From a virus: a DNA stretch of 64,000 nt. The notes under the pieces were generated by a model that saw nothing but the letters and a program-made list of their open reading frames with translations, did not search any database and had not been told where the DNA came from. The translations under genes and the position numbers were made by a program. Shown one piece after another: positions 3,484 through 42,082 of the stretch. Numbering within the stretch: the stretch's first letter is position 1; the number at the start of each line of letters is the position of its first letter. The stretch lies in IMG/VR virus record IMGVR_UViG_3300042197_001007. One strand, written 5' to 3'.

Positions 3484-3791
3484 TCGGATTGCTCCCAGAG
3501 TTTTTCTCTCATCATTCTAACACATTTATCCCATTGTAGCGTATCGTATGATGGTCGTGGGTCTTCCTTCGGCAACCATCGCTCTACTGCCTCTACAATC
3601 TCATCACACATATCAATAGAAAATCCCAGCTCATGCCTCATTACATTCCATAACGATGGTGGGCGTTTGAAATGTTTATCGAGTAGTTTATCGAGGTCAA
3701 ATACACCATCTTCCTTTGCTTGTTTCATAGCATTACGCAGACCTTCATCTACTTGCTCTGGTGTTTGTGGTGTTGGTTGATATTCAGTCAT
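3480..3791 (-). CDS. hypothetical protein (start revised to MTEYQP)
   Basis: ATGA coupling with the upstream stop at 3788. Confidence 0.6.
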   Translation of the reverse strand: MTEYQPTPQTPEQVDEGLRNAMKQAKEDGVFDLDKLLDKHFKRPPSLWNVMRHELGFSIDMCDEIVEAVERWLPKEDPRPSYDTLQWDKCVRMMREKLWEQSE

Positions 3792-25253: not shown

Positions 25254-26582
25254 TTAGTATTTGATTAGAAACTCTTGGACAATGTATGGTTGAATAAACT
25301 GATCTGCTTTATTTTCAGTGTTTACATCAACAGAAATTGTTGAAACAAGTGGAGCAGCTGGAATAAACGTTGGTCTTGTATTTACAACATATGTATGTGG
25401 TTGAGCAGAAAAGTTAATGAAGTGACGGTGGGATCCATCATTTCCAAACGCGGTTGTTTGATTAATAACATTATTGACTGCAGCATAAGTATCTCTGTCA
25501 CTATCAATATTCGCATCGAATGGAACATTTAAGTGAAAAGTTGTAGTTTCTTGTTTATAATTTGCTTCTAATGATTGAAATCCATTAATATTTTGACCGT
25601 TTAATCCTCCAAGAACACAACCAAGAGCAATAAGTTGAGAGCATCTTTGAGCATATGTTCCGCTATAAGTTATACTTCCACAAACAGATGTGTTTACGCT
25701 ACCGCCAAAATTACATCCGCCATTACTTCCACTGGCCATTGGAAAATTACAAGTATAACCAGATGGTATTAAACATTCACTAGATGCCCTAAATCCACAA
25801 CCGCCAGCCACACAACCACCATAGACAACATTTTCACACCCTGGATTTGATATGTATGGAACAAGACCTCTCGCAGCAGCAAAATCTCTTGTTGCTTGAT
25901 AATAACAAAGATCTTGTCTTGTATTATTTGCCCAGTTAATAACACACAAAGTAGATTTTCTAGTGTAAGAATTTCTTCCAAATGGACTAAATTCATTACC
26001 AGATGGGGCACGAACTCTGGTTCTCGTTCCATCATGGAAGTGTGCGTGCGGCATAAATCCATTTGTAAGAACATCAGTAATTTCAGTATAATTACCAGTT
26101 GATCTTGTAAATCCTGGTTCTCCAGTTATTTGAATTTGCTGTGCTGGTAAGAAAAAATCTCCCTGATATTGTATTTCATATAGTGTTCCAATATTGCTTT
26201 GAACTTCCAATCCAACACCAGATTTTGTTATTTCATTATCATTATCATCTTGAATGTACAAATCAATGTAGTCACCGAGGTTGGCACCACTTGAAGCACG
26301 TAATTTTTTTGATCCAAAATCTGGAACTTGAAATTGATTATCTAAAAGAGTTACGTTTGGTTTTCTATATCTTGACTGAGCTCCAGTGCCAAGAATTTCT
26401 GCCAGTTGAGGGAAAACTTCAGCAGAGTAAATAGTACCATCACAACGCAAATAACCAGATGGCAAATCGTCTACTGTAACTGGATCTGCCGGATCATTTG
26501 AAGATAATTGTTTTGACCAGTTAATAATCGTACCGGTCAAAGTTCCAACTTTAGATTTTTCTCTGTTATAAAATACTGCCAT
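25254..26582 (-). CDS. tail collar domain protein (short fibre-like), Cys-rich insert
   Basis: GTII...GYLRCDG...FPQLAEILG...FQVPD collar; QPY terminus. Confidence 0.8.
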   Translation of the reverse strand: MAVFYNREKSKVGTLTGTIINWSKQLSSNDPADPVTVDDLPSGYLRCDGTIYSAEVFPQLAEILGTGAQSRYRKPNVTLLDNQFQVPDFGSKKLRASSGANLGDYIDLYIQDDNDNEITKSGVGLEVQSNIGTLYEIQYQGDFFLPAQQIQITGEPGFTRSTGNYTEITDVLTNGFMPHAHFHDGTRTRVRAPSGNEFSPFGRNSYTRKSTLCVINWANNTRQDLCYYQATRDFAAARGLVPYISNPGCENVVYGGCVAGGCGFRASSECLIPSGYTCNFPMASGSNGGCNFGGSVNTSVCGSITYSGTYAQRCSQLIALGCVLGGLNGQNINGFQSLEANYKQETTTFHLNVPFDANIDSDRDTYAAVNNVINQTTAFGNDGSHRHFINFSAQPHTYVVNTRPTFIPAAPLVSTISVDVNTENKADQFIQPYIVQEFLIKY

Positions 26583-27835
26583 TAGAATGCCCTCATTATA
26601 ACCAGAGTAGTAAGTGATGGGGTATTTGGATTAATTTGAACACTCAATGCTTTATCAACACTCACTGGAGAAATAGTTCCTGTCGTCATATTATTTATGA
26701 GAATTGTTCCAGGAAGACGCATCTGACCCCTATTCATAGATATATCAACAGTGAAATGATTGTGTGATGCTAATGCTTCAGAATTCCACGTATCGGCATT
26801 ATGATTGAGTGTAACTGGGTATGGTTTGGTGGCATCTTGTCCTCTTGTAGATGTTGGTTCGCTTGGAACATCAGTAGAAGCGTAGTGATTTCTTAATCCC
26901 TGATAAAGACCAGCTGGGGGAAATGGAGCAGTAACAGCTGGTTGCTGAACATTAATAATACATGTGTTTGGATCTTGATAATCAATAGTATTTCCATAAC
27001 CAGGAATTGCCCTAGCAGCGCCAGGAATTACTGGAACAACTGGAGAAGCACTAGTAAAATCTCTAAAAGCATCCATTACAGGTAAGGTAAACGAAGCTTC
27101 ATCATACCAAGTAACTTCAGCAGTTCCAGGATTAAATCTATCCGCCGTAGTTTCGCTTGGATTTACTGGCACAGAACTTACAGTTTGGAACTCTGCATCT
27201 TGAGTGTCAAAATTGCCTGCTTCAAAAAGCGCAACATAACCACCACCAACAGAAGTTGATGGATATGGACTATCATCTGGTTGAGCATGTGAGTGCGATG
27301 GTGTGTGATCAACTCCAAGTTTTCTTGGTATAGTTCTTATTGTGTCAAAAAAGGCAGGATCCTGTATGGCAATTCCAGTAACTTTTCCTGCTAATTGTGC
27401 GTCCGACTCGATTGAAAAATTAACATCAACATATGAAACAATGTTTGTTAAAGGAGCAGCATCTGATCCATTCTCTGTGATATATGTTCCAACTTTTGCT
27501 AGGTCGGACGGATTTAAACGAGATCCTTCTAAGTCAACAAGAGATGTATTGTTCAAATTTGGCAAATTAAAAACGTCATTTTCATCATACTCTGGATAAC
27601 TGTTTGCTATTCCAACAAATGGACCACCAGGCTCTTGAAAAGGACCATAGGTATTTCCCAATAGTTGAGCAAGAAGAGGATAATCAATCGCTCTTAAAGT
27701 TTGACCTCTACAAACCAAATATCCTCTCGGTATACCAGAATCAGTAATTGTTGTTGTCGAAGAAGATCCTGTCCACGGCATAATTGTTCCAATTGGAACT
27801 GCCTTAGAAGCTCTTATCCTGTTATAACTTGCCAT
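26582..27835 (-). CDS. tail collar domain protein
   Basis: PIGTIMPW...GYLVCRG...YPLLA...FNLPNL collar; SHNH repeats. Confidence 0.8.
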   Translation of the reverse strand: MASYNRIRASKAVPIGTIMPWTGSSSTTTITDSGIPRGYLVCRGQTLRAIDYPLLAQLLGNTYGPFQEPGGPFVGIANSYPEYDENDVFNLPNLNNTSLVDLEGSRLNPSDLAKVGTYITENGSDAAPLTNIVSYVDVNFSIESDAQLAGKVTGIAIQDPAFFDTIRTIPRKLGVDHTPSHSHAQPDDSPYPSTSVGGGYVALFEAGNFDTQDAEFQTVSSVPVNPSETTADRFNPGTAEVTWYDEASFTLPVMDAFRDFTSASPVVPVIPGAARAIPGYGNTIDYQDPNTCIINVQQPAVTAPFPPAGLYQGLRNHYASTDVPSEPTSTRGQDATKPYPVTLNHNADTWNSEALASHNHFTVDISMNRGQMRLPGTILINNMTTGTISPVSVDKALSVQINPNTPSLTTLVIMRAF

Positions 27836-27838
27836 TTA

Positions 27839-30800
27839 TCAGACCTCCATTAACCACCATCCTTGGACAGCAGTCGGAATACCAACCTGTCCGTTACTAT
27901 CGGTTCCTCCAAGATAAATTAGTCCAAATGCGGCATTTGGTGTTTGAACAACCAATTCTCCAGATGGATATGGTGTTAATCTTCCACCAAGAAGTGTTCC
28001 TGTGTTGTCTCCTTGAATACGAACGCCAGAACTTTCAGCAGTTCTTAGAACTAGAGAAGTATTGTAGTTCAAGTTACCGCCAACCTCTACAATTCTCACA
28101 ACATCACCAGTTACTGGTGCCGTTGGAAGTATAAGTACAAGAGTTTGTGATGCTTGTACATTAACCATGTACATTATATTTGGTATCAATGTTAGATCTT
28201 CTTCTGCTGAAGCAGCAGAAATGTATCTTGTATGTCTTGCTCCAGATGAAGTATAGAAATTCTCAAGGCCAAAACTATCAATCGAATTGTCTTGCTTAAC
28301 AGCAAATTCTTTAGCGCCATTTATTCCAAGATTTTCAACTGATAGTTGCTTCAATGAAGTTGATGGAGCAGCAGATGGGATACCAGTAACAGTTAAAGTT
28401 TTTCTTGCTGTGACATTACCTAAGTTATCTGCTGAGAACGAAGGAACATATGAATATGGATCAGTGATTACGTTTTCTGGATCTTGACCACTGAACAAGA
28501 AGAAGTCACCACGAGCAACAACTCCAGCATCCCAAACAAGCAATCCTTGGTGATCAGCATGACCATCATCATTGACAAAACCAAATAATCTTGTCTGATT
28601 TACAGAATCATAAATTTCAAAATTACCACCAATTAACTTAACATCGCTAGCAATTTCCAACTTACCAGATCTGTATGGAATAGCACCATCAGTTCTCTGT
28701 TCGTTCATGGAGGTTTCGTGAACAACCCCCTGTAATCTACCTTCTACTGAAGCCCAAATTTGAGCACCACTGTTATTAGCAAGAGCTATCCATCCTTGAT
28801 AATCGAGTTTTTGCTGTACAATATATCCTTTGTCAAGGATGATCGAACAATACTGAGAAGAACTTCCAGTAATAACCCTGGTTCTCATTTCCACATCAAT
28901 AATGTTAGCGAACTCCTTATGTTTGATAACTCTTCTTACCACATTTCCAGTTGCGAACACGCTGTCGCCAGGAATAAATGAGGCACTTGTATCAATACCA
29001 TCTCCAGGAGCAGCAACAACAATTGTTGGATTTGTTACATCAGTAATTACTTGAATTACTTTACCAATAATAAATCTTCCAACACCAGTTGAAGCAGCAG
29101 TTGGAGTTCCAATAAAGACCAAATCATCAATATCAAATCTTCCAGTTCCAACTCCAAGAGATTGAACAGGAACTTGAACTTGATTAGATGATCCGGTAGC
29201 AGTTGCTCTGATTGTTGTATCTGGACCACCTTCTGCCGCAATTTGAGGATCATACCAGTATCCATACGCCCTTGTAATGTTTCCACTATCAAAAGCAGTT
29301 ACTATAGAAGAAGTTGTTGTATTTGTGGTGTTATTTCCAGAGAAAGCATATTCAATTTCAATTCTTCCATATTGTGATCCAATATGAGTAGTTCCAGTAC
29401 AAGTATCAACTTGGAAAGTTGTAACTCCTTCACCATTTGTAATTTCAAATTTCTCATTTCTTCTAGCTTCAAATGTTGCGGAAATTGTTGAAGATCCAAG
29501 TGCTGGAGAATTCAAATAAATTTCACTGGTTGCTGTGTTAATTCCAGAAATCTTTGTATCTTTATCAAATTCAAGTGGAGATTGGTTTGTAATATTGTGT
29601 AAATAATCTCCAAGTCTAAGATCATTAATTGTCTTACCGACACTTGTTACTGTTACACCACTCAACACAGAAGATCCAGCTGTAGCAGTTGCTGTAAATT
29701 GTATTTTACTTAAGGTTCCACAACCACCACTTAGTTTAAGAGTAGAATTTAGAGTTAACTGTGATCCAGGAACATCTGGATTACCAATTAATACTTCACC
29801 AGTTACAGAGTTAACAACGAATACGTCATTCTCTTCACTAGAGCAATCGCTAGAAATTCTAAATTTCTGTACTTGTTGTTCTAATGGAGAAACAACCTTG
29901 ATAACTTCTCCTTGATCAAAAATTCCATCATTATTTGTATCAGTTCTGTCAACAATTACATAATCGTTATTTGTTAAACTTCCGCCAAACTCAGCAAGAT
30001 AGACATTATCGGTTGGTCCTGTACCATCAAGAGATTGTTCTGTCCAAGTAGAATCAAACTGAACATTAACCTTGTAAATTGGAGTTCTATCTGGGTGATT
30101 AGTTAGAACTGCTGTGAAAGTTCCAAGTGGGCGGCGCCTTACTTTGATGTAATATGGAGCAACGTTTGTTCTTACGAGTTCAACAACTTGTAAAATTTCT
30201 GGATGCCCGGAAGCAGAAACTGCGCTATTAATAATAATGTAATCATTTTCTACAAAGTATGGTTCTCCATTTTGCTTCAGTGGAGCATTAAGGAGTGGGA
30301 GATAATATAGGTCTCCAGTTAATGCTGGTAAACTTTGTGGTTCAACAACTGGAGTTCCACCAATGTTTAGTACTGGTGCTTGGAAAGTAAGACCTCCCCA
30401 TGCTCCACTACCAGCAGTATCTACTTCATTATATCCTTCATCAGTGTTAGATTTGACTAAAACATTAACAATGTCAATATTTTTGTTAAATGTTGTTTCG
30501 TTAATAATTCCGTCTTGGTGGGCAGAAATAGTTGATCCAAGTTGACCTCTACTTCCAACAAATGAGAATGAAGCAACACCACCACAAATTAGAACATCGC
30601 CATTAAATTTAGCAGAAGCAATAACTTCTAGTTGGTTGTTAATCGTAGTTGTTCCACCCTGTCCAGCAATATTAATTTCAGATGCGTTAAGAGCAAAATC
30701 AATTGTAGATGCTGATCCAGAATCAGAGAAGAAGCTAACAGTTCCAGCAGTTGTTGAAAGTCTAACTGTGTCACTAATTGTTCTTCTTGCTCCTAACTGG

Positions 30801-33800
30801 AAGTCACCGTCAACTTTAAAGGATTTTGTCTTAATTCTAGTGAACGACTGAGATTCATTGTTTAGATAAGCACCACCAATCTCTACCTTACTAATTGTAA
30901 GAGCACCATCGGAAGGACGAGCATCTGGAGTTACACCAAGAGAAATGTTGCTGTGAAGACTATCACTACCTATTACAATGAACTGATCTTCAGATGTAGT
31001 ATCTCCAATAAAGATATTTTCAACTTTGTTGCCAATATTGAGAGTTCCAGTAAATGTGCTGTCAGTTACAAGATTGAATGTACCAAGTGCTACATTGGTT
31101 CTAATTTCAGCAACAGAGCTAAGAATAGATCCATTGCCATGAACTTCAATATCACGCTCAAATCTTACATCTTCAGTGAAACGAGCATCACCAACAACAA
31201 CCAATGCTCTATTGAGTTGTTTTGCTGTTACAGTCTCATCTGTGTTGATACCAATTCTACCAAGGTTGTTTCCTCTTCCAGCTTCAGTAATAGCAACTGT
31301 TCTGGTATCTACTCTTAGAGTGCTATAGTTTGTTGGAGCAAGACTATCGCCACCAACAACAAAAGCATCAGAAATAGCATTGAATGTTCTATTTGTTGGA
31401 TTAGCATTTGCTAGGAAGTTGTTTGGTGCGGTAGAAAGAGTTTTGCCGCTGATATATCCCTTACCAACAACATCAAGGTTAGCACGAGGATCTGTTGTGG
31501 CAGGATCAACAAATGCGTTGGTGTGTGCTGTATGTGGAGCACGAGCAATTGTGTTAATACCTAACTTGTAGTTACCAATATTTTCTGTTTCTGTTCTGAG
31601 AGCTTCGGCACCAATAACTCCAATTTCTTTCCAAGAAGCATTTGAAAATTCAATGCTTGGTGGTGTAGCACCAACAGCAGTTCCAGCAATAATATCTGCC
31701 CAATTTTCTACTGCCTGTGGAATTTGATCAATTACTTGGAAGTGAACATAGTTATTTGTTGATGAGAACGCATCACCAGGAGGTGAATAAACAACCCAAG
31801 TTAGATTTAGTCTTGGATCATAATAGAAGTTATTAACTCTGATCTGAGAACCAGAGGTAATACCAATATCCTGATTGCTAATATTAACACCAGTGTCAGC
31901 AGACTTAAAGGTTAGTTTAACTACATTGCTTCCATCAAAAGTAATCGTGAAGATACTATTGTTAGGAATTTGCTGATAGTAGTTTGCTAAAATCCAACCA
32001 AACGATCCTGTCTTACCAACCTCAAGACCTTTAATAAGAACATCACCTGGGCGAGGAGTTACACCACCATAAGTTATAAACTGTGCTGAAGAAATACGAG
32101 TTCCGCCTTGAGCAATTAGAGCAGTTTGATTTGGAGTGATGTTTGAGGGAATTCCAGCAGATGTGTGGGTCTGGAACATATATGCCTGACCATTTCCTCT
32201 CGCATTAAATCCAAATACAGCAGATTGAACTCTGTTTTTGCTGATACGAATATCACCGTTTGTTGGTGGTCTAAATGCTGTCCTATCAAGTCCTTCGTCT
32301 TGCTCCAACTGTGTTACAGGATCAACAGAAGAAACATTTGAACGAATGATGAGAACATCACGTTGCTGTGTAAGATCTTCATCTTGAACAGCAATTACAA
32401 GAGGTGCCTCAACAGAACTTACAAGTGATCCATCACCACCAACGATTGTAATATTTTGGTTGAAGGTAACAGGAGTATCAAATGTTGTGACAAGACCGCC
32501 AATAACATCGTTCTCGTCACCATCATCAGCAAGAACAGCAGCATCAATGAATGTCTCTTCACCAGTGATAGCATTAATTCTTCTATTACCGATGTAGAGG
32601 TCACCCTGAGAGTTGATACCTGTGTAGAAGACGATACCAGCATCTTGCTTCTTAGATTGAGCATAGAAGTCCTGATCTGGTGTTAGAACGACTTCCTGAC
32701 GAGCTGGGAGACCAGTGGAGTAGTTACCAGGACCGAAACCAAGGTATTCAAACGTGTGGTTACCAGCACGAGCAATAGATGGTCTGCGAAGTTCAACATA
32801 GTATCTCTGATCAGACAGAACACTGCTATTACCAGCGATTGGAATGAGACGATCTTCTGAACCAGAAGTTGCGTTACCATCCTGTGCTTGAATTGCGTTT
32901 GCTCCGGAGTATTCATTTTCAATGAAAGCACTCTGAGTGATAAGATCTTCAACAAGTTCTCTTGTTACGGAGTTCTTGTAGTCATTAACAGTAACAAGAC
33001 CATGTGTATAGTTGTCAGCAGCAGAGAATGCCTGTGGTGGGTCAATTAAGGCAGCATAGTAATTCTTCTCTTCATTTGTTGTTCCGTTCTTCTGGAACCA
33101 AAGAGGATCATTTCTGTAGTTTAGAGGATACAGTCTGCTGACTGGTTGTGAGAACTTGAAGTTCTTGAAGTTGTTGATAACTCCAGCACCAGTTGGGAAT
33201 GGAGAAATGTTACCGCGAAGAGCTGTGAGATAGTAGATACCATCTTGCTGTCCAGCAATACGACGTTGTAGGGTCTCAGAAGCGAAGATGTAGAATGTAT
33301 CTTCAATGATGCCAGCATCAGCAACGCTTTCGACGTAGTACTCAACACCAGCATCGTCCTGAATACGATCACCAGGAGTAATCGTATAAACGTTAGCACC
33401 ATTCTGTCTCCAGTAGTATTCTGGATATCCCTTACGAATGAGTGTCTTGAGTGGCAACGATTTGCCCATATCCTGATCTTCAAGCATATCTGCGAAGACC
33501 GAACCTTGAGTAAATCTTACATTGTCATACTCGCTGTACTCTAACTTGCCACCGCGAACGTTCTTGATGATTAGATAGTGATCGCCACCAACACTATAGT
33601 ATGCGTGAATGTTAGCAAGACCAGAAGAATAACCAGAGAAACTGACTTGGTTAGCAGTGATGCTTTGTGTCTTGTTGGTTACAAACTCTCCACCTTGAGG
33701 AGCAGTAATCTTTACCGTCGTAAAGATTTCGTTTCTTAGACCAGGGAAGTTTGTAGCATCTACAGCATGATCATAAACAGTAAGTTCAAGATACTTGATG

Positions 33801-36800
33801 TTTGGATTGAGATCATCTGCTACATAACGACCACTCTGAATAGTTGCTTGAATACCAGATGTAAAGCGAGCAAAAGCACGATACTCAATACCTTGACCTG
33901 TTAGATCCTTCTTGTATGGATCGTATGCGGCATCTTCATTAAGATTATTTGTCGCAAACTGTGCTGCTGTATAACCAATGTATTCACCAGCTTGAACTGG
34001 GTTTTCAAATCTCGCACCATATACCGATCCAGTAACTGGCTTAAGAAGAACTTTCTGTGGAATTAACTTACGAGTATCGTCAGTTCTTGTCTTAAGGACA
34101 AATCCGTTGATAGGATCTCTTGCGTTCTCAAGATACTTAGGAATGACATAACGGATCTTGTATGTTCTGTCATCTGCTTCTCTTGTATCTTCAAGACGCT
34201 CATACCACATATCAGTGGTTCTTGGTCTGTCCGAATAGTCAGACTGATGTAATCTCCAGAAAATATTTTCTTCCTGAACTGAAGTTGGTTGAGCAGTTAC
34301 TTGATCCTTACACTGAATATACCACTTACCAGTGCTTGATACAGCATCAGTAAATGCTGGATCAAACTTCATTGGCGATCTACGCTTGTTCGCAAATACA
34401 TCAAAGACAAGTCCTACCTGACCGGAAGCAAATGTAATTGGATTTACATTGTTAATCGCATCAGCATGTGTCTTGTGAATGGTAAATACTTTGTCATTTT
34501 GATAACGAGCAAAGAATTCAATCTGAGGATTAATTCTTCCTACGTTTGCGTTCTGTGGATTTGTAACAGCAACGGTAGCATCGTTAGAATAGGTTGATGC
34601 TACAAGAGGTAACTGTCCACCCTCAACTGCCCTAAAGAATACTCTATGTGGAGTTGTGGAAGCAGATGGAACGTCAAAGATGTGTGATACGTCAGTCTCA
34701 ATACCAGCATTAACACTGTTGGTTAGATTACACTCATAGCTATGTAAAGTATACTTATCATCAAGAACAAATTGATAGAGGTCAATTTCTACGTTAGGAT
34801 CAATGCTTGATGTTTCCGACGCATAGATGTAGATACCAGCAGCAGCATTCTCCTTAGAAGTTGCCAACATCAACTTGGTCTGATCACTTCCATTGAAGAA
34901 AGTTGTTGTGCTGTAATCTTCTGGTTGAGTTCTTCTACCAGGAGCAATCACATAATAAGTTCTGTTTGTTTCAAATCCTTTTGGAAGTCTGATAAGACGC
35001 TTATCAACTTCAACATACTTACCAGTGTCAACATCAAAACGAGGACGTGGAACAAGTCTTACAGGAGTTCCAGTCTCAAAGTTGTGAGCATTGGTAGAAC
35101 CATAACCAGTTGTATCAATTGTAAAGACAGTCGCTCTTGAAGAAAGAAGTGCTGTATTTACAGTCTGTTCTTGACGAGCAACTGTTCCAAGACCGCTGTT
35201 GATGATTGTAGTGATGTTTCCAACCAAAGTTTCAATTGCGTTGGCAACACCAGCACATTCTCTCTGTGTTGGAGCAGAAGGTGTGTATGCTTGAGTATCT
35301 TGAATAACATCTGGATTAGATGCTTCTGGTCCTACAGTAACTGTCTTAGGTAGAATATTTGCCCACTGACCTTTTTCAAATGTGAAGTATAGTTTGGTTG
35401 TAGTGCTGTTCTGTAGAGCATTTACTGTATTGCCAGTGGTAAGTCTTGCGTTGGCAACACCCAATTCAATTTGAGTATTGCTTACAATTCTCTTAACAAA
35501 TGTATCTTTAGGAATATTGCTGTAAATAGCAACAGCATTAGATTGTAGCAATCCATTGACATATGGAGTTGGAGATGTAGCATACTCAACAACTCTCATA
35601 CCAATGACAATACCACGAGTATCAGCAACATTAACAATTGCTGAACCAGATGTTGTTACACAGTTGACAGCAAGAACATCAAAATTACGCATCGCAGCAG
35701 TTGCGAGCTGACCAACATAGTTCCAAGCATCAATTGTTTCTGGTTTTTCTCCATCAATATAAGTTAGATTATTTCCAACATAGTATGCTTCACCTGCTTG
35801 AATGCTATTGATGTTACCACCAAGTCTAAGGTCATTAACAAGAGCATCAACAATATATGATACGTCACGATAACACTTAGATTGAGTGGCATTAACAATG
35901 AAGTCACCTGGATTTGCTGTTGGTAGACCAGCAAGAGATCCTGTGCTGATCGCATCGGTAACAATATCAAATAGGTTCTCAATGGATGAACGAACGTTGG
36001 CACAATCCCACTCTCCATTGCTGAGAGGTGGAAGAGAATTGAGATTACCAGCATAAAGACTATCAACAACAATGCTGATCAGAACATCAATTGTTGCTAA
36101 AACATCAGAGCAATTACCAAGGGCATAAGTTGTTGGTTGTACTGGAGCGGTTCTGGTGATGCCAGTTAGATTGCCAACACCACCATCATTACCGATTGCT
36201 TGAATGATAATACCAAACAGAGTATCAGTAGCAGCAATCGCAGATCCGCACTTAGGTAGAAGTTCATCAGCATCCCAGTCATGAGTTTGAGTGAAATCAA
36301 ATACCTGAGTTTCGTTATTTCCTGCTGTTGGTGTTACAGCGACATTGTTGATAACATCAATGGTTACTTTCTTTGCTTCTAAGAATACTTTAGCAGCTTC
36401 ATCACGCTCAGCATCAATAAATGTCTGAACTGGTTGACCATTGAATACGTTTGTTACATAAACAAGAGCAGCATCATAGGTCTTAGAGTTTCCACCAAAC
36501 TTAATATCATATGCGATTTGATCTAATACATCATAAACATCGTCAAGACAATCTTGCTCTGTATTGCCAGTTTGTGGAACATATGAAGGATATGCCAACT
36601 TCATACGCTGATATGCTTCTTTCGCAATAAACTTCTTGTTGTCCATAATGGTCAAGAAGACATTGCTATGAATGTCAGAGAATACTGCTGGTTCTTCAGT
36701 ATTATCCAGTGTGATTGTTAGATCTCTATCATAGTACTGATTATTTACAGCACGGTTCATAAGATCCTGTGCTCTTCTAAATGCTGTAATGGAAGGTCCA

Positions 36801-39800
36801 GTTTCTCCAGCAACACCGTTTGTAAGCAGAGTTGTTGCGTTGGTGAAATATTCCTTCGTTGCTGCGATAGTATACTCGTTACCACCAAACCAAAGGTCTT
36901 GAGCAACAGCATCAACAATGTGACCGATATCTCTACGGCACTTAGTTTCACCAGTCAAGAATGTTCCAGCATTCTCAGCAGGAAGAGAGTTTAGGTTACC
37001 AGCAGTTACAGCAGCAGTGACAATACCAGCAAGAGTTGTGATTGCTGACTGAACGTTAGCACATGAAGTTGGATCTACATTACTACCAGTCGCAGGATCG
37101 GCAGTGATTGTGAGATCCTTATAGTAGAGTTGATTGGTGATTGCTCTACGCATGAACTCAGCAGCTTCATTGAATGCTGTATTGCTCTGAGCAGTTTCTC
37201 CAACTAAACCGTTGCTGATTGGAGTTGTGGCATTCGTGAAATACTGTTGAATGAAAGTTCTGGTGTGCTTGTTACCGCCAGTGAATACGTCAACTGAAAT
37301 CGCATCAATAAAGTATCCAATGTCACGAGCACACTTCTTCATACCAGCAGGAGCAGATCCTTTGTTGATTTGAAGAGGAAGTGAATTTAGATTGCCATCA
37401 TTAATAATTGTTGTGATGATGCCACTCAAGGTATCAATTGCTGAACGAACGTTAGCACATGAAGTTGGATCTGTATTGCTTCCAGTCGCAGGATCAGCAG
37501 TAATTGTAAGATCCTTAACTGTAAGTTGGTTGGTGATAGCAGACTTCATCAAAGTCTTTGCTTGGTTGAAAGCATAGATGCTTTCTGTTACTTCGCCAAC
37601 TAAACCGTTGCTGATTGGTGTTGTAGCATTTGTAAAGTATTCAGCAGCAAATCTGTATGAATACTCGTTACCACGAATGAAGAGGTCAAGCGAAACAGCA
37701 TCAACAAAGTATCCAAGATCTCTCTTACACTTTGTTTCAGTTGAAGCAACACCAGGATATTGTGTGACCATGTTGGTCCAAGCAGTGTTGACAATCTCTG
37801 TCTTGTTCTGTTGGATTAGACGGTAGCTATCATAGAAACGCGAATCTGCTGTTGTTTGTGCGTCACCAGGGAAGTAGAAATCTGGATAATCAACCGCAAT
37901 CTTCGCAAGTGCTCTATCAGCAATCTCTTTGCTGTTACGACGAATGAGACGGAACGCATCAGCAAAACGTGATTGTGCGTTGCTCTGTGTATCACCAGGA
38001 ATGTAGAAGTCTGGATGATAAACAGCAATCTCAGCAAGTGCTGCGTCAAGAATGAACTCTCTGTTGTCAATAATTCTATTGCGAGCATCCTTGTAGCGAC
38101 CAGCAGGATCTTGCTTATTCGCAGCATCAACAGTTACACCTTCACTGTTCAATCCAAGTGCTGCTGAACCAGTGCTACCAGCAATTACACCATAAGGAGC
38201 TAGAATACTGGTTGGATCTGGATCATAAATGTCTGCCTTTACAGTGAGTAGGTTAGCAACTGCTTTCTTACATAGATCTCTTGCTCTATTGAAAGCAAAT
38301 ACAGCATAGTTCTCTTCGCCCACCAGACCGTTCTGTAATGGCGTTCCATCGCCATTGAAGTAGAACTTGGTAGCTTCAATCGTATTGAGGTTTCCACCGT
38401 CTCTGAGGTCTTCTGCGATGGCATCAACGATGAAACCAATGTCACGCTTACACTTACCATTCGCAACACCTTGGATATTACCAATACCAAATGTATCAAC
38501 CATCTGCTGGAATGCCGTATCAACAATCTCTTGACGATTGTTGAGAATTAGATTACGAGCATCAAAGTAACGACCAGCAGCAGGATTTAGACCAGGATTA
38601 ACATAAGGAATGTTCTGAAGTCTTGGATACTTTTCAAGAATATATCCAAAAACTTCCTCTTGGATCATTGTGCGATTGCTTTCAATCAGATTAGCAGCAT
38701 CAGCATAGACACTATTGATTGAAATACCGGTTGGATTGAGAATAGATCCTTTAGCAATATACTTTAGGAAACCAGTTGGTTCTAATTCAACATTAAAGAT
38801 TTCTCCAGTTCCTGGTGCTGGATCAAGTTTTACATATAGTTTGTCACTTGATTTCGCACCAAGTCTGTAACCATCAATTGTAGCAGCAGGTCTATCAGCA
38901 GGAGTAATGATGTCATCACTGCCCAAGAATAGTTTTGTATAGTTGTTAGGGTTCTGAATAGTTCCCTGAATATCAACAGTATAATATGCGATCTTCTCAA
39001 TATTTTCAGATCCTTCAACTGCTCTCTTTGGTGGAATAATATCAGTAATGTATCCACCTTTATCTTGGTTGAAAGCAAATCCTTTGAAACCAATTGCGTG
39101 TAGAGATGTATTACCAAAGTTTGAGTTGGAGTTGGTGATGGACATGTCTCCACCACTTTCCATTAAGAAGTGATCCGCAAAACCAACCGCGAAGATAGAA
39201 ACGTTCTGAATGAATGCGTCTTCTGAAGCACGAACGTGGAAGTTTCTCCACTCATCTTTCCAGTAACTGTCGCCCTTTGCGTGATAAGGAACCGTAGCAA
39301 ATGCGTCAGTCAGTGATGCCTGGTTCCAAGTGTTTGAATACTCGTCGTAACGAATGAATGCTCTATCGTCTTTCTGTAGAGAAACACCAGTATACTGAGC
39401 AATAACCATGGATCTAAATCCAGTGGCTTTTAGACCATTTGCCCAGATACCACAGATACCCCAGGTAGAACGAATTGAAACGTTGAAGACGTATGGAGAA
39501 GCAGATTCGACGCTATCAACCTCAGCAAGAGTTTGTGCGTTTTGTCCAAGAGCAGGAGTTGTATCTACACTGATTGTTTGTCCTGATACAATATTATTGC
39601 CAATTCCACCTACAACGAAAGGAACTTCGTATGTGAATTTACGAGGATCGTTTTCATCAATTTCTTTGATTGGGAAAAATCCTTCAAGAACATCATCAAT
39701 GTTGGTGTTTGAAATTGAAACAAACTGACCAGCAAAATATCCGTGATCAACTTTGGTTGTTACTTGAACTTCCGTTGTTGAAGCAGGAATACTTGGATCA

Positions 39801-40651
39801 GTTGTCGCATCGACAAGTTTCAAACTTTCAATAACACGACTGTCAGAAAGAGGTCCAACAATTCTGTTCTCTTGAATACTGAAATCAAACTCACCAGGAT
39901 CGTCAATTGTTGGTTGATATGCTGAGAATGCCTTAGCAATCTTTCTATAGAACAGTCCTAGCTCTTCACTATCAGCATATTCAAATACTGTTAGTTTGTG
40001 GTGAGAATAGTTAGGAGCAGTAAGTTTGGTGAAGTCAGTTGGATCGTAATAAACTTCACCAGTTCCAGCAGCAGAGTTGTAAAGAGGTGATTCTGAAGTT
40101 GTCTGACCATCTTTAATCGTAAACTGCCAGAAATAGCAACCACCAGTTACATTGAAGATCGCAGAACGTGGAACAGTAACAGATGCTGGATCTGGAACGT
40201 AGAGAGGTCTGATCGTTGTTCTACGAAGATCATAACCAACAAGTGATGAACCACGAGGAATGATCGCACCACCTTCAGTGTTGTTAAACTTATAAAGTAC
40301 GTTGTTTGGATTTGAAATATCAAGAATGCTATTATCAGTCCAAGCATTCAGAGCTTGATCAAAACCAAATACATCAATGCCAGTAGTATCTACAAGACCA
40401 GGACGGTTGTCAATATAGTGAATACCAGGCATCAGCATGATGCTGAACTGGTCAAAACGGTCATTATCCTTACCAGGAAGATAAGAATATCTTGCGATTT
40501 CTAAGAAAGCACGTTGGATACTTTTGAAAGGGGTGATTGGTGAATTACCTCTGTTCGATAACGCATCTGTTGCGTTAAAATCATCAGGCGAAACATAAAG
40601 ATACTTACCAGTTTTTGAACTGATAAGGTTATCCAGACGTGTTAATGGCAT
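27839..40651 (-). CDS. giant virion structural / long tail fibre protein (4270 aa) with six phycobiliprotein-like repeats
   Basis: Uninterrupted ORF after a late promoter, upstream of collar proteins; N-terminal YV...G.D.N.G...PFK.I..A pattern; repeats KCxRD(I/L)G..VDA...DL..GGN. Confidence 0.8.
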   Translation of the reverse strand: MPLTRLDNLISSKTGKYLYVSPDDFNATDALSNRGNSPITPFKSIQRAFLEIARYSYLPGKDNDRFDQFSIMLMPGIHYIDNRPGLVDTTGIDVFGFDQALNAWTDNSILDISNPNNVLYKFNNTEGGAIIPRGSSLVGYDLRRTTIRPLYVPDPASVTVPRSAIFNVTGGCYFWQFTIKDGQTTSESPLYNSAAGTGEVYYDPTDFTKLTAPNYSHHKLTVFEYADSEELGLFYRKIAKAFSAYQPTIDDPGEFDFSIQENRIVGPLSDSRVIESLKLVDATTDPSIPASTTEVQVTTKVDHGYFAGQFVSISNTNIDDVLEGFFPIKEIDENDPRKFTYEVPFVVGGIGNNIVSGQTISVDTTPALGQNAQTLAEVDSVESASPYVFNVSIRSTWGICGIWANGLKATGFRSMVIAQYTGVSLQKDDRAFIRYDEYSNTWNQASLTDAFATVPYHAKGDSYWKDEWRNFHVRASEDAFIQNVSIFAVGFADHFLMESGGDMSITNSNSNFGNTSLHAIGFKGFAFNQDKGGYITDIIPPKRAVEGSENIEKIAYYTVDIQGTIQNPNNYTKLFLGSDDIITPADRPAATIDGYRLGAKSSDKLYVKLDPAPGTGEIFNVELEPTGFLKYIAKGSILNPTGISINSVYADAANLIESNRTMIQEEVFGYILEKYPRLQNIPYVNPGLNPAAGRYFDARNLILNNRQEIVDTAFQQMVDTFGIGNIQGVANGKCKRDIGFIVDAIAEDLRDGGNLNTIEATKFYFNGDGTPLQNGLVGEENYAVFAFNRARDLCKKAVANLLTVKADIYDPDPTSILAPYGVIAGSTGSAALGLNSEGVTVDAANKQDPAGRYKDARNRIIDNREFILDAALAEIAVYHPDFYIPGDTQSNAQSRFADAFRLIRRNSKEIADRALAKIAVDYPDFYFPGDAQTTADSRFYDSYRLIQQNKTEIVNTAWTNMVTQYPGVASTETKCKRDLGYFVDAVSLDLFIRGNEYSYRFAAEYFTNATTPISNGLVGEVTESIYAFNQAKTLMKSAITNQLTVKDLTITADPATGSNTDPTSCANVRSAIDTLSGIITTIINDGNLNSLPLQINKGSAPAGMKKCARDIGYFIDAISVDVFTGGNKHTRTFIQQYFTNATTPISNGLVGETAQSNTAFNEAAEFMRRAITNQLYYKDLTITADPATGSNVDPTSCANVQSAITTLAGIVTAAVTAGNLNSLPAENAGTFLTGETKCRRDIGHIVDAVAQDLWFGGNEYTIAATKEYFTNATTLLTNGVAGETGPSITAFRRAQDLMNRAVNNQYYDRDLTITLDNTEEPAVFSDIHSNVFLTIMDNKKFIAKEAYQRMKLAYPSYVPQTGNTEQDCLDDVYDVLDQIAYDIKFGGNSKTYDAALVYVTNVFNGQPVQTFIDAERDEAAKVFLEAKKVTIDVINNVAVTPTAGNNETQVFDFTQTHDWDADELLPKCGSAIAATDTLFGIIIQAIGNDGGVGNLTGITRTAPVQPTTYALGNCSDVLATIDVLISIVVDSLYAGNLNSLPPLSNGEWDCANVRSSIENLFDIVTDAISTGSLAGLPTANPGDFIVNATQSKCYRDVSYIVDALVNDLRLGGNINSIQAGEAYYVGNNLTYIDGEKPETIDAWNYVGQLATAAMRNFDVLAVNCVTTSGSAIVNVADTRGIVIGMRVVEYATSPTPYVNGLLQSNAVAIYSNIPKDTFVKRIVSNTQIELGVANARLTTGNTVNALQNSTTTKLYFTFEKGQWANILPKTVTVGPEASNPDVIQDTQAYTPSAPTQRECAGVANAIETLVGNITTIINSGLGTVARQEQTVNTALLSSRATVFTIDTTGYGSTNAHNFETGTPVRLVPRPRFDVDTGKYVEVDKRLIRLPKGFETNRTYYVIAPGRRTQPEDYSTTTFFNGSDQTKLMLATSKENAAAGIYIYASETSSIDPNVEIDLYQFVLDDKYTLHSYECNLTNSVNAGIETDVSHIFDVPSASTTPHRVFFRAVEGGQLPLVASTYSNDATVAVTNPQNANVGRINPQIEFFARYQNDKVFTIHKTHADAINNVNPITFASGQVGLVFDVFANKRRSPMKFDPAFTDAVSSTGKWYIQCKDQVTAQPTSVQEENIFWRLHQSDYSDRPRTTDMWYERLEDTREADDRTYKIRYVIPKYLENARDPINGFVLKTRTDDTRKLIPQKVLLKPVTGSVYGARFENPVQAGEYIGYTAAQFATNNLNEDAAYDPYKKDLTGQGIEYRAFARFTSGIQATIQSGRYVADDLNPNIKYLELTVYDHAVDATNFPGLRNEIFTTVKITAPQGGEFVTNKTQSITANQVSFSGYSSGLANIHAYYSVGGDHYLIIKNVRGGKLEYSEYDNVRFTQGSVFADMLEDQDMGKSLPLKTLIRKGYPEYYWRQNGANVYTITPGDRIQDDAGVEYYVESVADAGIIEDTFYIFASETLQRRIAGQQDGIYYLTALRGNISPFPTGAGVINNFKNFKFSQPVSRLYPLNYRNDPLWFQKNGTTNEEKNYYAALIDPPQAFSAADNYTHGLVTVNDYKNSVTRELVEDLITQSAFIENEYSGANAIQAQDGNATSGSEDRLIPIAGNSSVLSDQRYYVELRRPSIARAGNHTFEYLGFGPGNYSTGLPARQEVVLTPDQDFYAQSKKQDAGIVFYTGINSQGDLYIGNRRINAITGEETFIDAAVLADDGDENDVIGGLVTTFDTPVTFNQNITIVGGDGSLVSSVEAPLVIAVQDEDLTQQRDVLIIRSNVSSVDPVTQLEQDEGLDRTAFRPPTNGDIRISKNRVQSAVFGFNARGNGQAYMFQTHTSAGIPSNITPNQTALIAQGGTRISSAQFITYGGVTPRPGDVLIKGLEVGKTGSFGWILANYYQQIPNNSIFTITFDGSNVVKLTFKSADTGVNISNQDIGITSGSQIRVNNFYYDPRLNLTWVVYSPPGDAFSSTNNYVHFQVIDQIPQAVENWADIIAGTAVGATPPSIEFSNASWKEIGVIGAEALRTETENIGNYKLGINTIARAPHTAHTNAFVDPATTDPRANLDVVGKGYISGKTLSTAPNNFLANANPTNRTFNAISDAFVVGGDSLAPTNYSTLRVDTRTVAITEAGRGNNLGRIGINTDETVTAKQLNRALVVVGDARFTEDVRFERDIEVHGNGSILSSVAEIRTNVALGTFNLVTDSTFTGTLNIGNKVENIFIGDTTSEDQFIVIGSDSLHSNISLGVTPDARPSDGALTISKVEIGGAYLNNESQSFTRIKTKSFKVDGDFQLGARRTISDTVRLSTTAGTVSFFSDSGSASTIDFALNASEINIAGQGGTTTINNQLEVIASAKFNGDVLICGGVASFSFVGSRGQLGSTISAHQDGIINETTFNKNIDIVNVLVKSNTDEGYNEVDTAGSGAWGGLTFQAPVLNIGGTPVVEPQSLPALTGDLYYLPLLNAPLKQNGEPYFVENDYIIINSAVSASGHPEILQVVELVRTNVAPYYIKVRRRPLGTFTAVLTNHPDRTPIYKVNVQFDSTWTEQSLDGTGPTDNVYLAEFGGSLTNNDYVIVDRTDTNNDGIFDQGEVIKVVSPLEQQVQKFRISSDCSSEENDVFVVNSVTGEVLIGNPDVPGSQLTLNSTLKLSGGCGTLSKIQFTATATAGSSVLSGVTVTSVGKTINDLRLGDYLHNITNQSPLEFDKDTKISGINTATSEIYLNSPALGSSTISATFEARRNEKFEITNGEGVTTFQVDTCTGTTHIGSQYGRIEIEYAFSGNNTTNTTTSSIVTAFDSGNITRAYGYWYDPQIAAEGGPDTTIRATATGSSNQVQVPVQSLGVGTGRFDIDDLVFIGTPTAASTGVGRFIIGKVIQVITDVTNPTIVVAAPGDGIDTSASFIPGDSVFATGNVVRRVIKHKEFANIIDVEMRTRVITGSSSQYCSIILDKGYIVQQKLDYQGWIALANNSGAQIWASVEGRLQGVVHETSMNEQRTDGAIPYRSGKLEIASDVKLIGGNFEIYDSVNQTRLFGFVNDDGHADHQGLLVWDAGVVARGDFFLFSGQDPENVITDPYSYVPSFSADNLGNVTARKTLTVTGIPSAAPSTSLKQLSVENLGINGAKEFAVKQDNSIDSFGLENFYTSSGARHTRYISAASAEEDLTLIPNIMYMVNVQASQTLVLILPTAPVTGDVVRIVEVGGNLNYNTSLVLRTAESSGVRIQGDNTGTLLGGRLTPYPSGELVVQTPNAAFGLIYLGGTDSNGQVGIPTAVQGWWLMEV

Positions 40652-40814: not shown

Positions 40815-40828
40815 ATTTTTCTCCAAAA

Positions 40829-40901
40829 CTCCCCCACCTGGACTCGAACCAGGAACCCCAGAGTTAACAGCTCCGTGCTCTGCCAATTGAGCTATAAGGG
40901 A
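40829..40901 (-). tRNA. trnN: tRNA-Asn(GTT)
   Basis: Cloverleaf TCCCTTA...TGGGGGA-G; anticodon loop CTGTTAA; TTCGAGT T-loop. Confidence 0.95.
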
Positions 40902-40907
40902 ATGAAA

Positions 40908-41078
40908 TTAGGACTGTTTGGTGTCCATTAGATATTCTACAGTGTTTGCTATATCATTCATAGCATCACGTAGATGTGGTTGTTGTCCGCTTTCCTGACG
41001 AACAATTGGTCTATGATCATCTGTAAGTGACCAGCGCCATTGTTTCATTATAGCACAGTACCACAGATTAATTTTCAT
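40908..41078 (-). CDS. conserved cyanophage hypothetical protein (start MKINLWY)
   Basis: 3' part of the track ORF. Confidence 0.6.
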   Translation of the reverse strand: MKINLWYCAIMKQWRWSLTDDHRPIVRQESGQQPHLRDAMNDIANTVEYLMDTKQS

Positions 41079-41223
41079 TTTTGAAACTTTCCAATCGTAA
41101 CCAATTAGCGAGGGCGTTGAGTTGCATTCTTTTGTCTTCAGTGAAATCATGTTGTTTATTGAAAAGATAGAAATCAATAGCCTCTAGTGCTAGTTGTCTG
41201 TCTGCTTGTGAAATGAGTGACAT
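41068..41223 (-). CDS. hypothetical protein (start MSLISQ)
   Basis: The track start lies in tRNA-Ala. Confidence 0.6.
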   Translation of the reverse strand: MSLISQADRQLALEAIDFYLFNKQHDFTEDKRMQLNALANWLRLESFKNEN

Positions 41224-41242
41224 AGTGAGTATAAAGAACTCA

Positions 41243-41315
41243 TGGAGAATAGGAGACTCGAACTCCTGACAGCCTGCTTGCAAAGCAGGTGCTCTACCAA
41301 CTGAGCTAATTCCCC
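41243..41315 (-). tRNA. trnA: tRNA-Ala(TGC)
   Basis: Cloverleaf; G3:U70 Ala identity pair; anticodon TGC. Confidence 0.95.
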
Positions 41316-41392
41316 TGGGGGCGGGAGTTGGATTTGAACCAACGACCTGCGGCTTATGAGACCGCTGAACTACCAGACTGTTCCATCCCGCT
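41316..41392 (-). tRNA. trnM: tRNA-Met(CAT), initiator-like, with encoded CCA
   Basis: A1:C72 mismatch, A11:U24 pair, TTCAAAT T-loop, anticodon CAT. Confidence 0.85.
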
Positions 41393-41493
41393 ATAAGGTG
41401 CCGCTAGTGCCAGCGGCACACCAGGCACTTGGTTGTTTCGGATATGATGATCCCGAAACATATGATAAGATCGGATATTTCCAACCTTATCAA
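41393..41493 (-). ncRNA. unassigned structured RNA between tRNA-Thr and tRNA-Met
   Basis: Four consecutive hairpins filling about 100 nt; two have complementary loops AGUGCC/GGCACU. Confidence 0.6.
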
Positions 41494-41567
41494 AGCCCAA
41501 GGTCGGACTTGAACCGACGACCTACGGTTTACAAAACCGTTGCTCTATCCAGCTGAGCTACTCAGGC
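41494..41567 (-). tRNA. trnT: tRNA-Thr(TGT)
   Basis: Cloverleaf; ACGGT-TTTGTAA-ACCGT anticodon arm. Confidence 0.95.
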
Positions 41568-42082
41568 ATTCTGACAAATTTAAATGCTCCCCAATCAGAT
41601 CCCCATATTTTAGCATGAGTTTCGGCATGAAGACCACGATCAACTACATGATATTCAGTTTTAGTGAGAGTGACTTCGTTTTGAACATAGGTTTTTACAC
41701 CCTGCCAATCAACCCAGCACTCACAGGTGGAGGTGCCACCTTGAAACATTTCAGGTCCCGTCTGCGTAATAATAATATCACACCCCTCTCGGTATGTCAA
41801 GATGTCATCTGTGATAAGATCAAGATTTTGACATTCAACAAACCGTTTTGGATCTTCAATCTCGTAATTCTTGAGACGGAACTGACCCTTCTCAATCACT
41901 ACATCAATTACAAACTGACGATATGGGTTATTTAGAAGATAGTTATAAGCTTGTTCACCATAGAAGCGATAATCGGAAATTTTCCGATGTTGTACCCGAA
42001 TATGAGCATAACGAGTTGGATGAGATTGTGCTTGATGTTTATTGGCAAAAGTGCCTTCAAGATATTCAAGAAACTGGTTCAT
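41558..42082 (-). CDS. cpeT: CpeT/CpcT-like T-type phycobilin lyase
   Basis: G.F.N..QA...P..YAHI.V...Y.EQAY...PYRQ...GCD...WG pattern. Confidence 0.85.
   Translation of the reverse strand: MNQFLEYLEGTFANKHQAQSHPTRYAHIRVQHRKISDYRFYGEQAYNYLLNNPYRQFVIDVVIEKGQFRLKNYEIEDPKRFVECQNLDLITDDILTYREGCDIIITQTGPEMFQGGTSTCECWVDWQGVKTYVQNEVTLTKTEYHVVDRGLHAETHAKIWGSDWGAFKFVRMPE

Follow-up and report, generated by a model that had tools for sequence, protein, structure and literature searches.

Phycobiliprotein-like domains, probably nested, in giant predicted virion proteins of cyanophages that carry the bilin-lyase homologue CpeT

A 4270-aa protein encoded in the window (the whole 64,000-nucleotide stretch of DNA that was analysed, from a marine cyanobacterial virus, IMG/VR record IMGVR_UViG_3300042197_001007) carries six copies of a globin-fold domain that is almost certainly a true homologue of the phycobiliproteins (PBPs), and among sequenced cyanophages this domain occurs together with cpeT, which encodes a homologue of T-type phycobilin lyases. 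We propose, with slightly less than even confidence, that these domains are nested, would be loaded with bilin with the assistance of CpeT, and would thereby make attachment to the host dependent on light; the attachment of bilin, the role of CpeT and the sensing of light are what we infer.

The genes concerned are the following.

27839..40651, minus strand: giant ORF P0001, 4270 aa, with matches to PHROGs

40828..41567, minus strand: four genes for tRNAs (Asn, Ala, Met, Thr), situated between the giant gene and cpeT

41558..42082, minus strand: cpeT, T-type phycobilin lyase homologue, 174 aa (phrog_488, E 9e-46)

The giant ORF matches phrog_529 (tail fiber) and phrog_4527 (short tail fiber) with E-values from 0 to 1e-296, its N-terminus resembling the tail-fibre PHROG and its C-terminal 2500 aa the 'short tail fiber' PHROG. 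Its homologue in S-RSM4 is annotated as 'putative short tail fibre', and its relative in Syn9, gp101, is annotated as 'virion structural protein' and occupies the gp7 position. The neighbouring genes encode baseplate hub and tail proteins, and the product is a predicted tail-fibre or baseplate protein of the virion. The cpeT gene lies on the same strand, 0.9 kb upstream.

A first-pass annotation of the sequence had pointed to six motifs resembling the bilin-attachment site of PBPs, and a regular-expression scan for C..[DE] recovered all six C-x-[RD]-D motifs, at Cys734, 975, 1107, 1238, 1368 and 1593, in exactly the contexts quoted there (KCKRDIGF, KCKRDLGY, KCARDIGY, KCRRDIGH, DCLDDVY and KCYRDVSY). 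Only one further C..[DE] site occurs in the whole giant protein, at position 3603. Five of the six copies read C-x-R-D; copy 5 reads C-L-D-D (DCLDD), without the Lys and the Arg. The D..(D)..GGN pattern described downstream is present as well, with RGN in copy 2 and with DV or DI instead of DL in copies 3 and 5, and Cys1065 and Cys1197 do lie within TSCANV helices. Between residues 645 and 1820, 12 of the 14 Cys residues fall at two recurrent positions, six within KCxRD and six at the start of a helix that belongs to module C below. The similarity among the repeats is far above chance (internal blastp E-values down to 1e-49), and a repeat HMM scores 140-190 bits on every copy.

Searches in both directions relate these repeats to PBPs. 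Against Pfam PF00502, which has a gathering score of 22.2 bits, the whole protein scored 39.6 bits, residues 645-1820 scored 51.1 bits and the single unit at aa 890-1090 scored 24.9 bits, although three of the six copies gave no match when scanned singly. In the reciprocal search, a profile of 56 phage units gave 142 matches at E<10 among 177,635 PDB sequences, and the best 60 of the 142 were all PBPs or PBP-derived (best E 1.9e-5). The HMM alignment places the phage motif Cys on Cys84, within KCxRDIGY. The profile matches PBPs over helices B-E only; outside the stretch from helix B to helix E sequence similarity to PBPs was undetectable, and a profile of the C-terminal half found no PBP at E<=10.

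At the structural level, we compared an AlphaFold (AF2) model of the unit at aa 925-1100 (pLDDT 88.5, pTM 0.86) with known folds. With Foldseek, the 45 matches listed within ranks 1-50 were all PBPs or PBP-derived, at TM <=0.64. With VIA-align, the top eight were PBPs or the PBP domain of ApcE (Z 12.2-15.1), and other globins reached Z values of about 10 (non-haem) and 6-7 (haem). The first-pass annotation had suggested both the PF00502 search on single repeats and the Foldseek comparison, and its proposal of globin-fold PBP homologues is borne out by these results and by the reciprocal search.

Each unit is made up of three modules. Module A comprises helices A/B, module B helices E-G including KCxRD, and module C the second Cys with helix H. 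Their order along the region is AABAAABCBCBABCCCBC, with the following locations, in which partners are proposed from the nested parse described below.

35186..38719, minus strand: PBP-like region, residues 645-1822, with six modules each of A, B and C

37352..37879, minus strand: contiguous complete unit A5-B2-C1, aa 925-1100, Cys975 and Cys1065; modelled, PBP fold

36143..36697, minus strand: second contiguous complete unit A6-B5-C3, aa 1319-1503, Cys1368 and Cys1468, with the degenerate DCLDD

38252..38458, minus strand: module B1, aa 732-800, KCKRD, Cys734; proposed partners A2 (38489-38581) and C5 (35921-36004, Cys1550)

37130..37339, minus strand: module B3, aa 1105-1174, KCARDIGY, Cys1107 (Cys107 in unit numbering), the copy nearest alpha-phycocyanin; followed by C2 (36980-37075, Cys1197), proposed A partner A4 (37880-37981)

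36737..36949, minus strand: module B4, aa 1235-1305, KCRRD, Cys1238; proposed partners A3 (38036-38110) and C4 (36029-36121, Cys1514)

35684..35881, minus strand: module B6, aa 1591-1656, KCYRD, Cys1593; proposed partners the outermost A1 (38615-38719) and C6 (35192-35257, Cys1799), both of them weak matches

The six repeats first described as tandem are thus real as copies, but only two of them (925-1097 and 1319-1503) are contiguous complete units, the others being split into separated modules. The module string resolves into six nested complete domains, which has a probability of 8e-5 under random order, and the same kind of parse works in 79 of 121 homologues versus 15 of 78,000 shuffles. 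Judged from module order, the region probably consists of six complete domains inserted into one another at the B-E and G-H loops, and such nesting would explain the "extra helices" of the first-pass annotation. A model of unit 3 placed no upstream helix in the A/B position.

The residues of the bilin site are strongly conserved. Among 989 copies in 121 proteins, which elsewhere are just 25-50% identical, the Lys is kept in 83%, the Cys in 96%, the Arg in 87% and the Asp in 97%, the last three forming the Cys84/Arg86/Asp87-type triad. The second Cys is retained in 51 of 56 units and corresponds in the model to Cys141, one residue ahead of the last helix (142-161). Its proposed equivalence to beta-Cys153 of the 'GDCS' site finds no support in sequence, as the C-terminal-half profile retrieves no PBP, although an N-cap position on the last helix is compatible with it. 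Of the earlier interpretation as a whole, the homology to PBPs and the link to CpeT are supported, but the sequence register of the second Cys helix with beta-Cys153 is not. Compared with PBPs, the B-E loop lacks about 9 residues, so that the pocket may differ.

The domain was found in 351 of 50,697 phage records, and all 351 are cyanophages; at 50% identity, the family counts 1437 representatives that match the unit profile. The domain sits in many different giant structural proteins of 4000-7000 aa encoded in late tail modules, a single protein of some relatives having as many as 36 matched stretches, and is present in most sequenced marine cyanomyoviruses among those examined, Prochlorococcus phages whose hosts have no phycobilisomes among them. 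In 35 genomes, for which we drew also on Table 3 of PMC3037559, domain and cpeT were both present in 28, both absent in seven and discordant in none, which strongly supports the link to the neighbouring CpeT suggested in the first-pass annotation. The two genes adjoin each other here and in S-WAM2, ACG-2014e/i/j, S-CAM1/3, S-RIM32/44 and Syn1. The seven genomes with neither (P-SSM2, S-SM2, S-SSM7, S-CREM2, S-B68, S-N03 and S-CRM01) may represent no more than two lineages, so that few independent events underlie the co-occurrence. The bilin-synthesis genes pebS and ho1 do not follow the domain, being present in P-SSM2 and S-SSM7, which both lack it. Because the domain is confined to CpeT-carrying phages, pigment on the particle and light sensing can now be tested.

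Published adsorption phenotypes fit the presence of the domain. P-HM1 and P-HM2 fail to adsorb without light, whereas P-SSM2 and the podoviruses adsorb in darkness too; adsorption of S-PM2 requires light but not host photosynthesis, and light-sensitive tail fibres are one possibility named by the authors (PMC6628666). P-HM1, P-HM2 and S-PM2 carry the domain and P-SSM2 does not. Light also boosts adsorption of P-SSM2 (PMC6628666), and P-HM2 in the dark still shows 44% host DNA degradation and phage transcripts of up to 2% (PMC5082946), such partial infection indicating that the light dependence is not absolute. That light-dependent adsorption is due to bilin binding is possible but doubtful.

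We suggest that the PBP-like domains may be apoprotein substrates for bilin. As the virion is assembled, phycoerythrobilin or phycocyanobilin made by the host or the phage would be joined to them with the aid of phage CpeT. The most plausible target of CpeT would be the helix-H Cys, and the Cys84-like site would receive its bilin either autocatalytically or through a host lyase. An adsorption apparatus pigmented in this way might then render host attachment light-dependent. The chance that bilin is bound in the virion is about even; that T4-like cyanophages bear a virion-borne bilin photoreceptor, loaded with the help of CpeT and gating adsorption, is rather unlikely. A 2017 study by Gasper et al. 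(J Biol Chem 292:3089) reportedly found that CpeT of P-HM1 binds phycoerythrobilin, its physiological substrate not being established. The role of phage cpeT was called unresolved in a comparative genomic study of 2010 (PMC3037559).

Alternatively, the domains might remain without pigment, the PBP fold having been captured from a host gene and used solely as a rigid helical element in building the fibre or baseplate. The Cys, Arg and Asp would then be needed for folding, for contacts between subunits, for disulfides or for binding metal rather than bilin, and CpeT would be merely co-inherited or act as a pigment-free assembly chaperone. This agrees with the fact that just the fold and one helix motif are common to PBPs, the C-terminal half having no detectable sequence similarity, and with the heavy rearrangement and nesting of the domains in so many different structural proteins. 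The possibly small number of lineages among the double-negative genomes also favours it, as does the lack of any report of pigment on virions: our literature searches found no experiment showing bilin on cyanophage particles, no coloured virions and no bilin peptides. Nevertheless, it is not obvious why a building block should retain K-C-x-R-D in 83-97% of 989 otherwise divergent copies, or the Cys capping helix H in 51 of 56 units, and the restriction to cyanophages (351/351) and the perfect tracking of a bilin lyase (28/7/0) point to bilin chemistry. We consider a purely structural role plausible, with the odds leaning clearly against it.

If bilin is bound, it might still have nothing to do with sensing. 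The pigment could be a virion sunscreen or antioxidant, a photosensitiser that locally damages or perforates the envelope of the host, or a bilin sink within the cell late in infection. The evidence for bilin binding is the same here as for light-gated attachment, and up to 36 stretches per protein suggest that the amount of pigment is more important than any one sensing site. However, a few dozen baseplate bilins cannot shade the DNA in the capsid, no data connect these phages with host photodamage, and what sets carriers apart from non-carriers in published work is adsorption in the dark. A pigment without a sensory role is thus improbable.

It is very unlikely that the domains act as a phycobilisome mimic or decoy that binds host linkers, lyases or NblA-like factors before virion assembly and so disturbs or taps the antenna. 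The fold and the alpha-phycocyanin-like KCARDIGY could be recognised by host lyases or linkers, but the domains lack the N-terminal X-Y hairpin with which PBPs form alpha-beta monomers (the model aligns only from around PBP residue 21 or 33), are buried in structural proteins of late tail modules, and are carried also by phages of phycobilisome-free Prochlorococcus. Chance or convergent likeness of an amphipathic helical repeat to PBPs, to which the weak single-copy Pfam scores (no match for three of six) might be ascribed, is scarcely credible given that the 60 best PDB matches were exclusively of this family and that two structure-comparison methods applied to one AF2 model both put PBPs first.

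Light-gated attachment through bilin-loaded domains could answer two questions, namely why most T4-like cyanophages have cpeT alone and no other part of the phycoerythrin operon (PMC3037559) and how some cyanophages can attach only when there is light although host photosynthesis is not needed (PMC6628666), and one set of experiments would test both directly. If true, the photoreceptor reading would explain phage cpeT together with the light-dependent adsorption of S-PM2, P-HM1 and P-HM2, and would make this the first virus particle with a light sensor of its own. Since most of the marine cyanomyoviruses examined have the domain, any function it has would bear on when in the day the ocean's main primary producers are infected. 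Our literature searches found no paper describing PBP domains in cyanophage virion proteins, in agreement with the first-pass annotation, although public protein collections already give precomputed PF00502 matches for the homologues.

The PBP family would also be extended from soluble antenna subunits to domains apparently nested in virion proteins of 4000-7000 aa, an unusual architecture. With the alpha and beta subunits (CpcA/B, CpeA/B, ApcA/B) the phage domains share the globin-like fold of helices A, B, E, F', F, G and H, the helix-E K-C-x-R-D-I-G-Y with Cys at the Cys84 position and equivalents of Arg86 and Asp87, and the helix-B pattern 'DA..N...I...A......P'; their second Cys lies just ahead of helix H, where beta subunits have Cys153/155. 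PBP subunits are free proteins of 160-180 aa, whereas the phage domains are embedded in a predicted virion protein of 4270 aa. The X-Y hairpin has no counterpart among the modules found, the structural alignments beginning at PBP residues 21-49 (model residues 3-11), and the phage domains would therefore form no canonical alpha-beta monomer.

The PBP-like domain of ApcE (LCM; PDB 4xxi), which ranks second structurally (VIA-align Z 14.4, rmsd 1.9 over 116 residues), likewise sits in a large multidomain protein and has an insertion in its B-E loop. ApcE attaches its own bilin autocatalytically, a precedent for lyase-independent loading of a Cys84-like site, although its attachment Cys is elsewhere (Cys196). 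In addition, ApcE has a single PBP domain with a loop as its insertion and is a cellular antenna component, whereas the insertions in the predicted phage virion protein appear to be further PBP domains.

Among the best sequence and Foldseek matches is also a 'bacterial fluorescent protein' (8u0f_C). The bilin biosynthesis-associated globins (BBAGs) are described as bilin-binding PBP paralogues of non-photosynthetic bacteria, and the available text of that work names phages for PcyA and PcyX only, not for globins (PMC10151467; PMC11480375). BBAGs resemble the phage domains in being PBP relatives outside the phycobilisome, but they occur in heterotrophs as small free proteins with a link to pre-PcyA genes. 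Finally, T-type lyases act on the Cys153-equivalent site of beta subunits (PMC10452541), which corresponds in position to the helix-H Cys of the phage units.

The whole finding lies within a single open reading frame:

27839-40651, minus strand, giant ORF of 4270 aa

Residue i of its product corresponds to window base 40651-3(i-1), and the range reported by the first-pass annotation covers residues 645-1820. A pattern scan of the whole protein for C-x-x-[DE] recovered Cys734, 975, 1107, 1238, 1368 and 1593, the same positions and motif sequences that the annotation had quoted, and just one extra site in the other 3100 residues. The six copies are clearly similar to one another (blastp E down to 1e-49), and with an HMM built from all of them the individual scores are 140-190 bits. 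Within residues 645-1820, 12 of the 14 Cys residues occupy either a KCxRD position or a second-Cys position. The N-terminus and the C-terminal 2500 aa of the protein match tail-fibre PHROGs.

Homology to phycobiliproteins (PBPs) and a globin fold, as that annotation had proposed, are established for these domains as far as computation can take them, with profile searches in both directions and structural searches with a predicted model in agreement. The Pfam family PF00502 (Phycobilisome protein; curated cut-off 22.2 bits) matched the whole giant protein at 39.6 bits and the PBP-like region (aa 645-1822) at 51.1 bits in four stretches. The single-repeat search that had been suggested succeeded in part: the unit at aa 890-1090 scored 24.9 bits, but copies 1 and 5 of the KCxRD repeats, scanned singly, reached 12-17 bits, under the cut-off, and copies 3, 4 and 6 gave no match. 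In the reciprocal direction, a unit profile built from 56 units homologous to aa 925-1100, drawn from 80 related IMG/VR loci, was run against 177,635 PDB sequences and returned 142 matches at E<10, the best 60 of which were all PBPs or PBP-derived (best E 1.9e-5). The aligned span covers helices B through E and places the motif Cys on PBP Cys84 within K-C-x-R-D-I-G-Y. An AlphaFold2 model of the unit computed from the 56-unit alignment is confident and all-helical (pLDDT 88.5, pTM 0.86). With this model, the 45 Foldseek matches listed within ranks 1-50 were all PBPs or PBP-derived (TM up to 0.64), and among 48,161 chains searched with VIA-align the first eight were PBP or ApcE-PBP chains (Z 12.2-15.1), followed by non-haem sensor globins (Z ~10) and haem globins (Z 6-7).

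The putative bilin site is strongly conserved. Across 989 copies in 121 homologous giant proteins, the motif residues K, C, R and D are kept in 83%, 96%, 87% and 97% of copies, and downstream of the motif D (95%), GGN (75/88/96%), Y (96%), E (91%) and N (95%) are likewise retained, although identity among copies is otherwise just 25-50%. A second Cys lies one residue ahead of the last helix in 51 of the 56 units. The first-pass annotation had likened it to the beta-Cys153 'GDCS' site of phycocyanin, and its position in the fold is compatible with that comparison. However, a profile of the C-terminal half detected no PBP in the PDB, yielding only four chance-level matches (Csn2, a designed scaffold), and we therefore dropped the sequence register with 'GDCS' and limit the likeness to position in the fold.

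The domain appears to be confined to cyanophages. Searching 50,697 phage records with the unit by tblastn identified 351 carriers, all of them phages of Synechococcus or Prochlorococcus or labelled 'cyanophage'. In other lineages the domains occur in proteins of 6000-6800 aa annotated as gp7-like baseplate wedge initiators, and the Syn9 carrier is gp101, a 'virion structural protein' encoded between gp6 and a gp10-like gene. An exhaustive unit-profile search returned 1437 representative proteins at E<=1e-3, and nearly all of the best 150 are large and multi-copy. Some metagenomic relatives (4800-6400 aa; P0124-P0126 and others) carry 32-36 unit-profile stretches, well above any isolate examined. 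Our literature searches turned up no account of PBP-like domains within structural proteins of cyanophages, matching the first-pass annotation, which knew of none, though one may exist; PF00502 is, however, already precomputed on most homologues in a public collection, among them the 'putative short tail fibre' of S-RSM4.

The genes around the giant gene include a T-type phycobilin lyase gene, cpeT, 0.9 kb upstream on the same strand:

41558-42082, minus strand, cpeT (phrog_488, E 9e-46)
40828-41567, minus strand, four tRNA genes separating cpeT from the giant gene (Asn-GTT, Ala-TGC, Met-CAT, Thr-TGT)
21411-27835, minus strand, three fibre-like ORFs of 1280, 442 and 417 aa ('short tail fiber', 'tail collar' and 'virion structural' PHROGs)
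20796-21407, minus strand, 2OG-Fe(II) oxygenase of 203 aa (phrog_61, E 8e-46)

Baseplate hub and tail genes lie upstream of cpeT, and the further fibre-like proteins, with the oxygenase gene inside their cluster, lie downstream of the giant gene. None of the three fibre-like ORFs directly downstream contains PBP-like modules. In many other cyanophages a tRNA gene (Val, Thr or Asp) immediately follows cpeT. The oxygenase also weakly matches a PHROG labelled ferrochelatase (2e-6), a putative link to tetrapyrroles, and a 'hypothetical with ferrochelatase domain' is among the sporadic cyanophage genes (Sullivan et al. 2010).

The giant gene has cpeT as its neighbour in this clade, but in S-RIM2 and S-PM2 the two are not adjacent. 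Across genomes, domain and lyase gene occur together, scoring a PF06206 match as cpeT presence. All 13 cpeT-positive genomes of a 16-genome panel (PMC3037559) carry the domain, as do five of five further cpeT-positive phages; conversely, PF06206 was found in five of five further carriers from other genera and in five of five domain-carrying IMG/VR genomes at least 90% complete. P-SSM2, S-SM2 and S-SSM7, which lack cpeT in the same panel (Table 3), gave neither a unit-profile match nor PF06206, and neither domain nor T-type lyase was found in the cluster C phages S-CREM2, S-B68, S-N03 and S-CRM01, reported to lack T-type lyases (PMC10665884). The link with CpeT raised by the first-pass annotation thus rests on 28 genomes with both, seven with neither and no discordant case (uncorrected Fisher p ~1.5e-7, with the seven negatives perhaps representing only two lineages). 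The coupling does not extend to the bilin-synthesis genes pebS and ho1: P-SSM2 (NC_006883) and S-SSM7 (NC_015287) encode both (PMC3037559, Table 3) without cpeT or the domain, indicating that phage bilin synthesis is not tied to virion domains. The cluster C cyanophages OR473000, MK016664 and MT162466, which have the S-type lyase gene cpcV in place of cpeT (PMC10665884), show no PBP-like domain by the unit profile, and the S-type lyase therefore has another target.

Three facts underlie the best mechanistic reading: exactly the bilin-site residues are retained in copies that have diverged extremely, the domain is restricted to cyanophages, and it is strictly coupled to a bilin lyase. Taken together, they suggest that the domains may be apoproteins that bind bilin and are loaded with CpeT's help. 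An apo structural domain that was inherited along with cpeT is the main rival; a complex prediction for CpeT and the modelled unit (score 0.01, 'no answer') is neutral either way. If the domains do bind bilin, the adsorption apparatus would be pigmented and might respond to light. Darkness prevents adsorption of P-HM1 and P-HM2 but only reduces that of P-SSM2, and the podoviruses P-SSP7 and P-GSP1 also adsorb without light (Liu et al. 2019, PMC6628666). Adsorption of S-PM2, in the account that PMC6628666 gives of Jia et al. 2010, needs light but not host photosynthesis, and the candidates named there are host receptors or phage tail fibres that are sensitive to light. P-HM1, P-HM2 and S-PM2 have both the domains and cpeT, whereas P-SSM2 has neither. 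Phages with a known phenotype are a mere handful, and weak infection by P-HM2 in the dark has been described (Thompson et al. 2016).

The arrangement of the repeats is not the simple tandem array of six that had been proposed. A full-unit HMM detected only two contiguous complete units (925-1097 and 1319-1503); each remaining KCxRD segment is missing its N-terminal helices, its last helix or both, and orphan copies of these helices are scattered elsewhere in the PBP-like region. When the unit is divided into three modules, A for helices A/B, B for helices E-G including KCxRD and C for the second Cys and helix H, the protein has six copies of each, arranged AABAAABCBCBABCCCBC. This order fits the nesting grammar D = A D* B D* C, giving six complete domains with one inserted within another, as do only 1428 of 17,153,136 possible orderings (chance 8e-5). 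Allowing for a missed terminal A or C, 79 of 121 homologues parse, compared with 15 of 78,000 shuffled strings, and some relatives read A10(BC)7A2(BC)5 and so contain each module 12 times. We also considered helix sharing between neighbouring repeats. When unit 3 was modelled with its preceding helix, the match to PBPs (Z 9.2) was confined to residues 43-161 (the E-H half), and the preceding helix showed no alignment to PBP helices A/B; since it is not used as A/B, we rejected sharing, and nesting fits better. From module order, we infer that six nested domains are probably present. For the four split domains, the modules would pair as A1-B6-C6, A2-B1-C5, A3-B4-C4 and A4-B3-C2.

The phage units differ from PBPs in having no X-Y hairpin, the element from which the alpha-beta monomer is formed, because VIA-align alignments of the unit model begin near PBP residue 21-33. 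The insertion points are the B-E loop (the A|B junction) and the G-H loop (the B|C junction), and ApcE likewise carries its insertion at the B-E loop.
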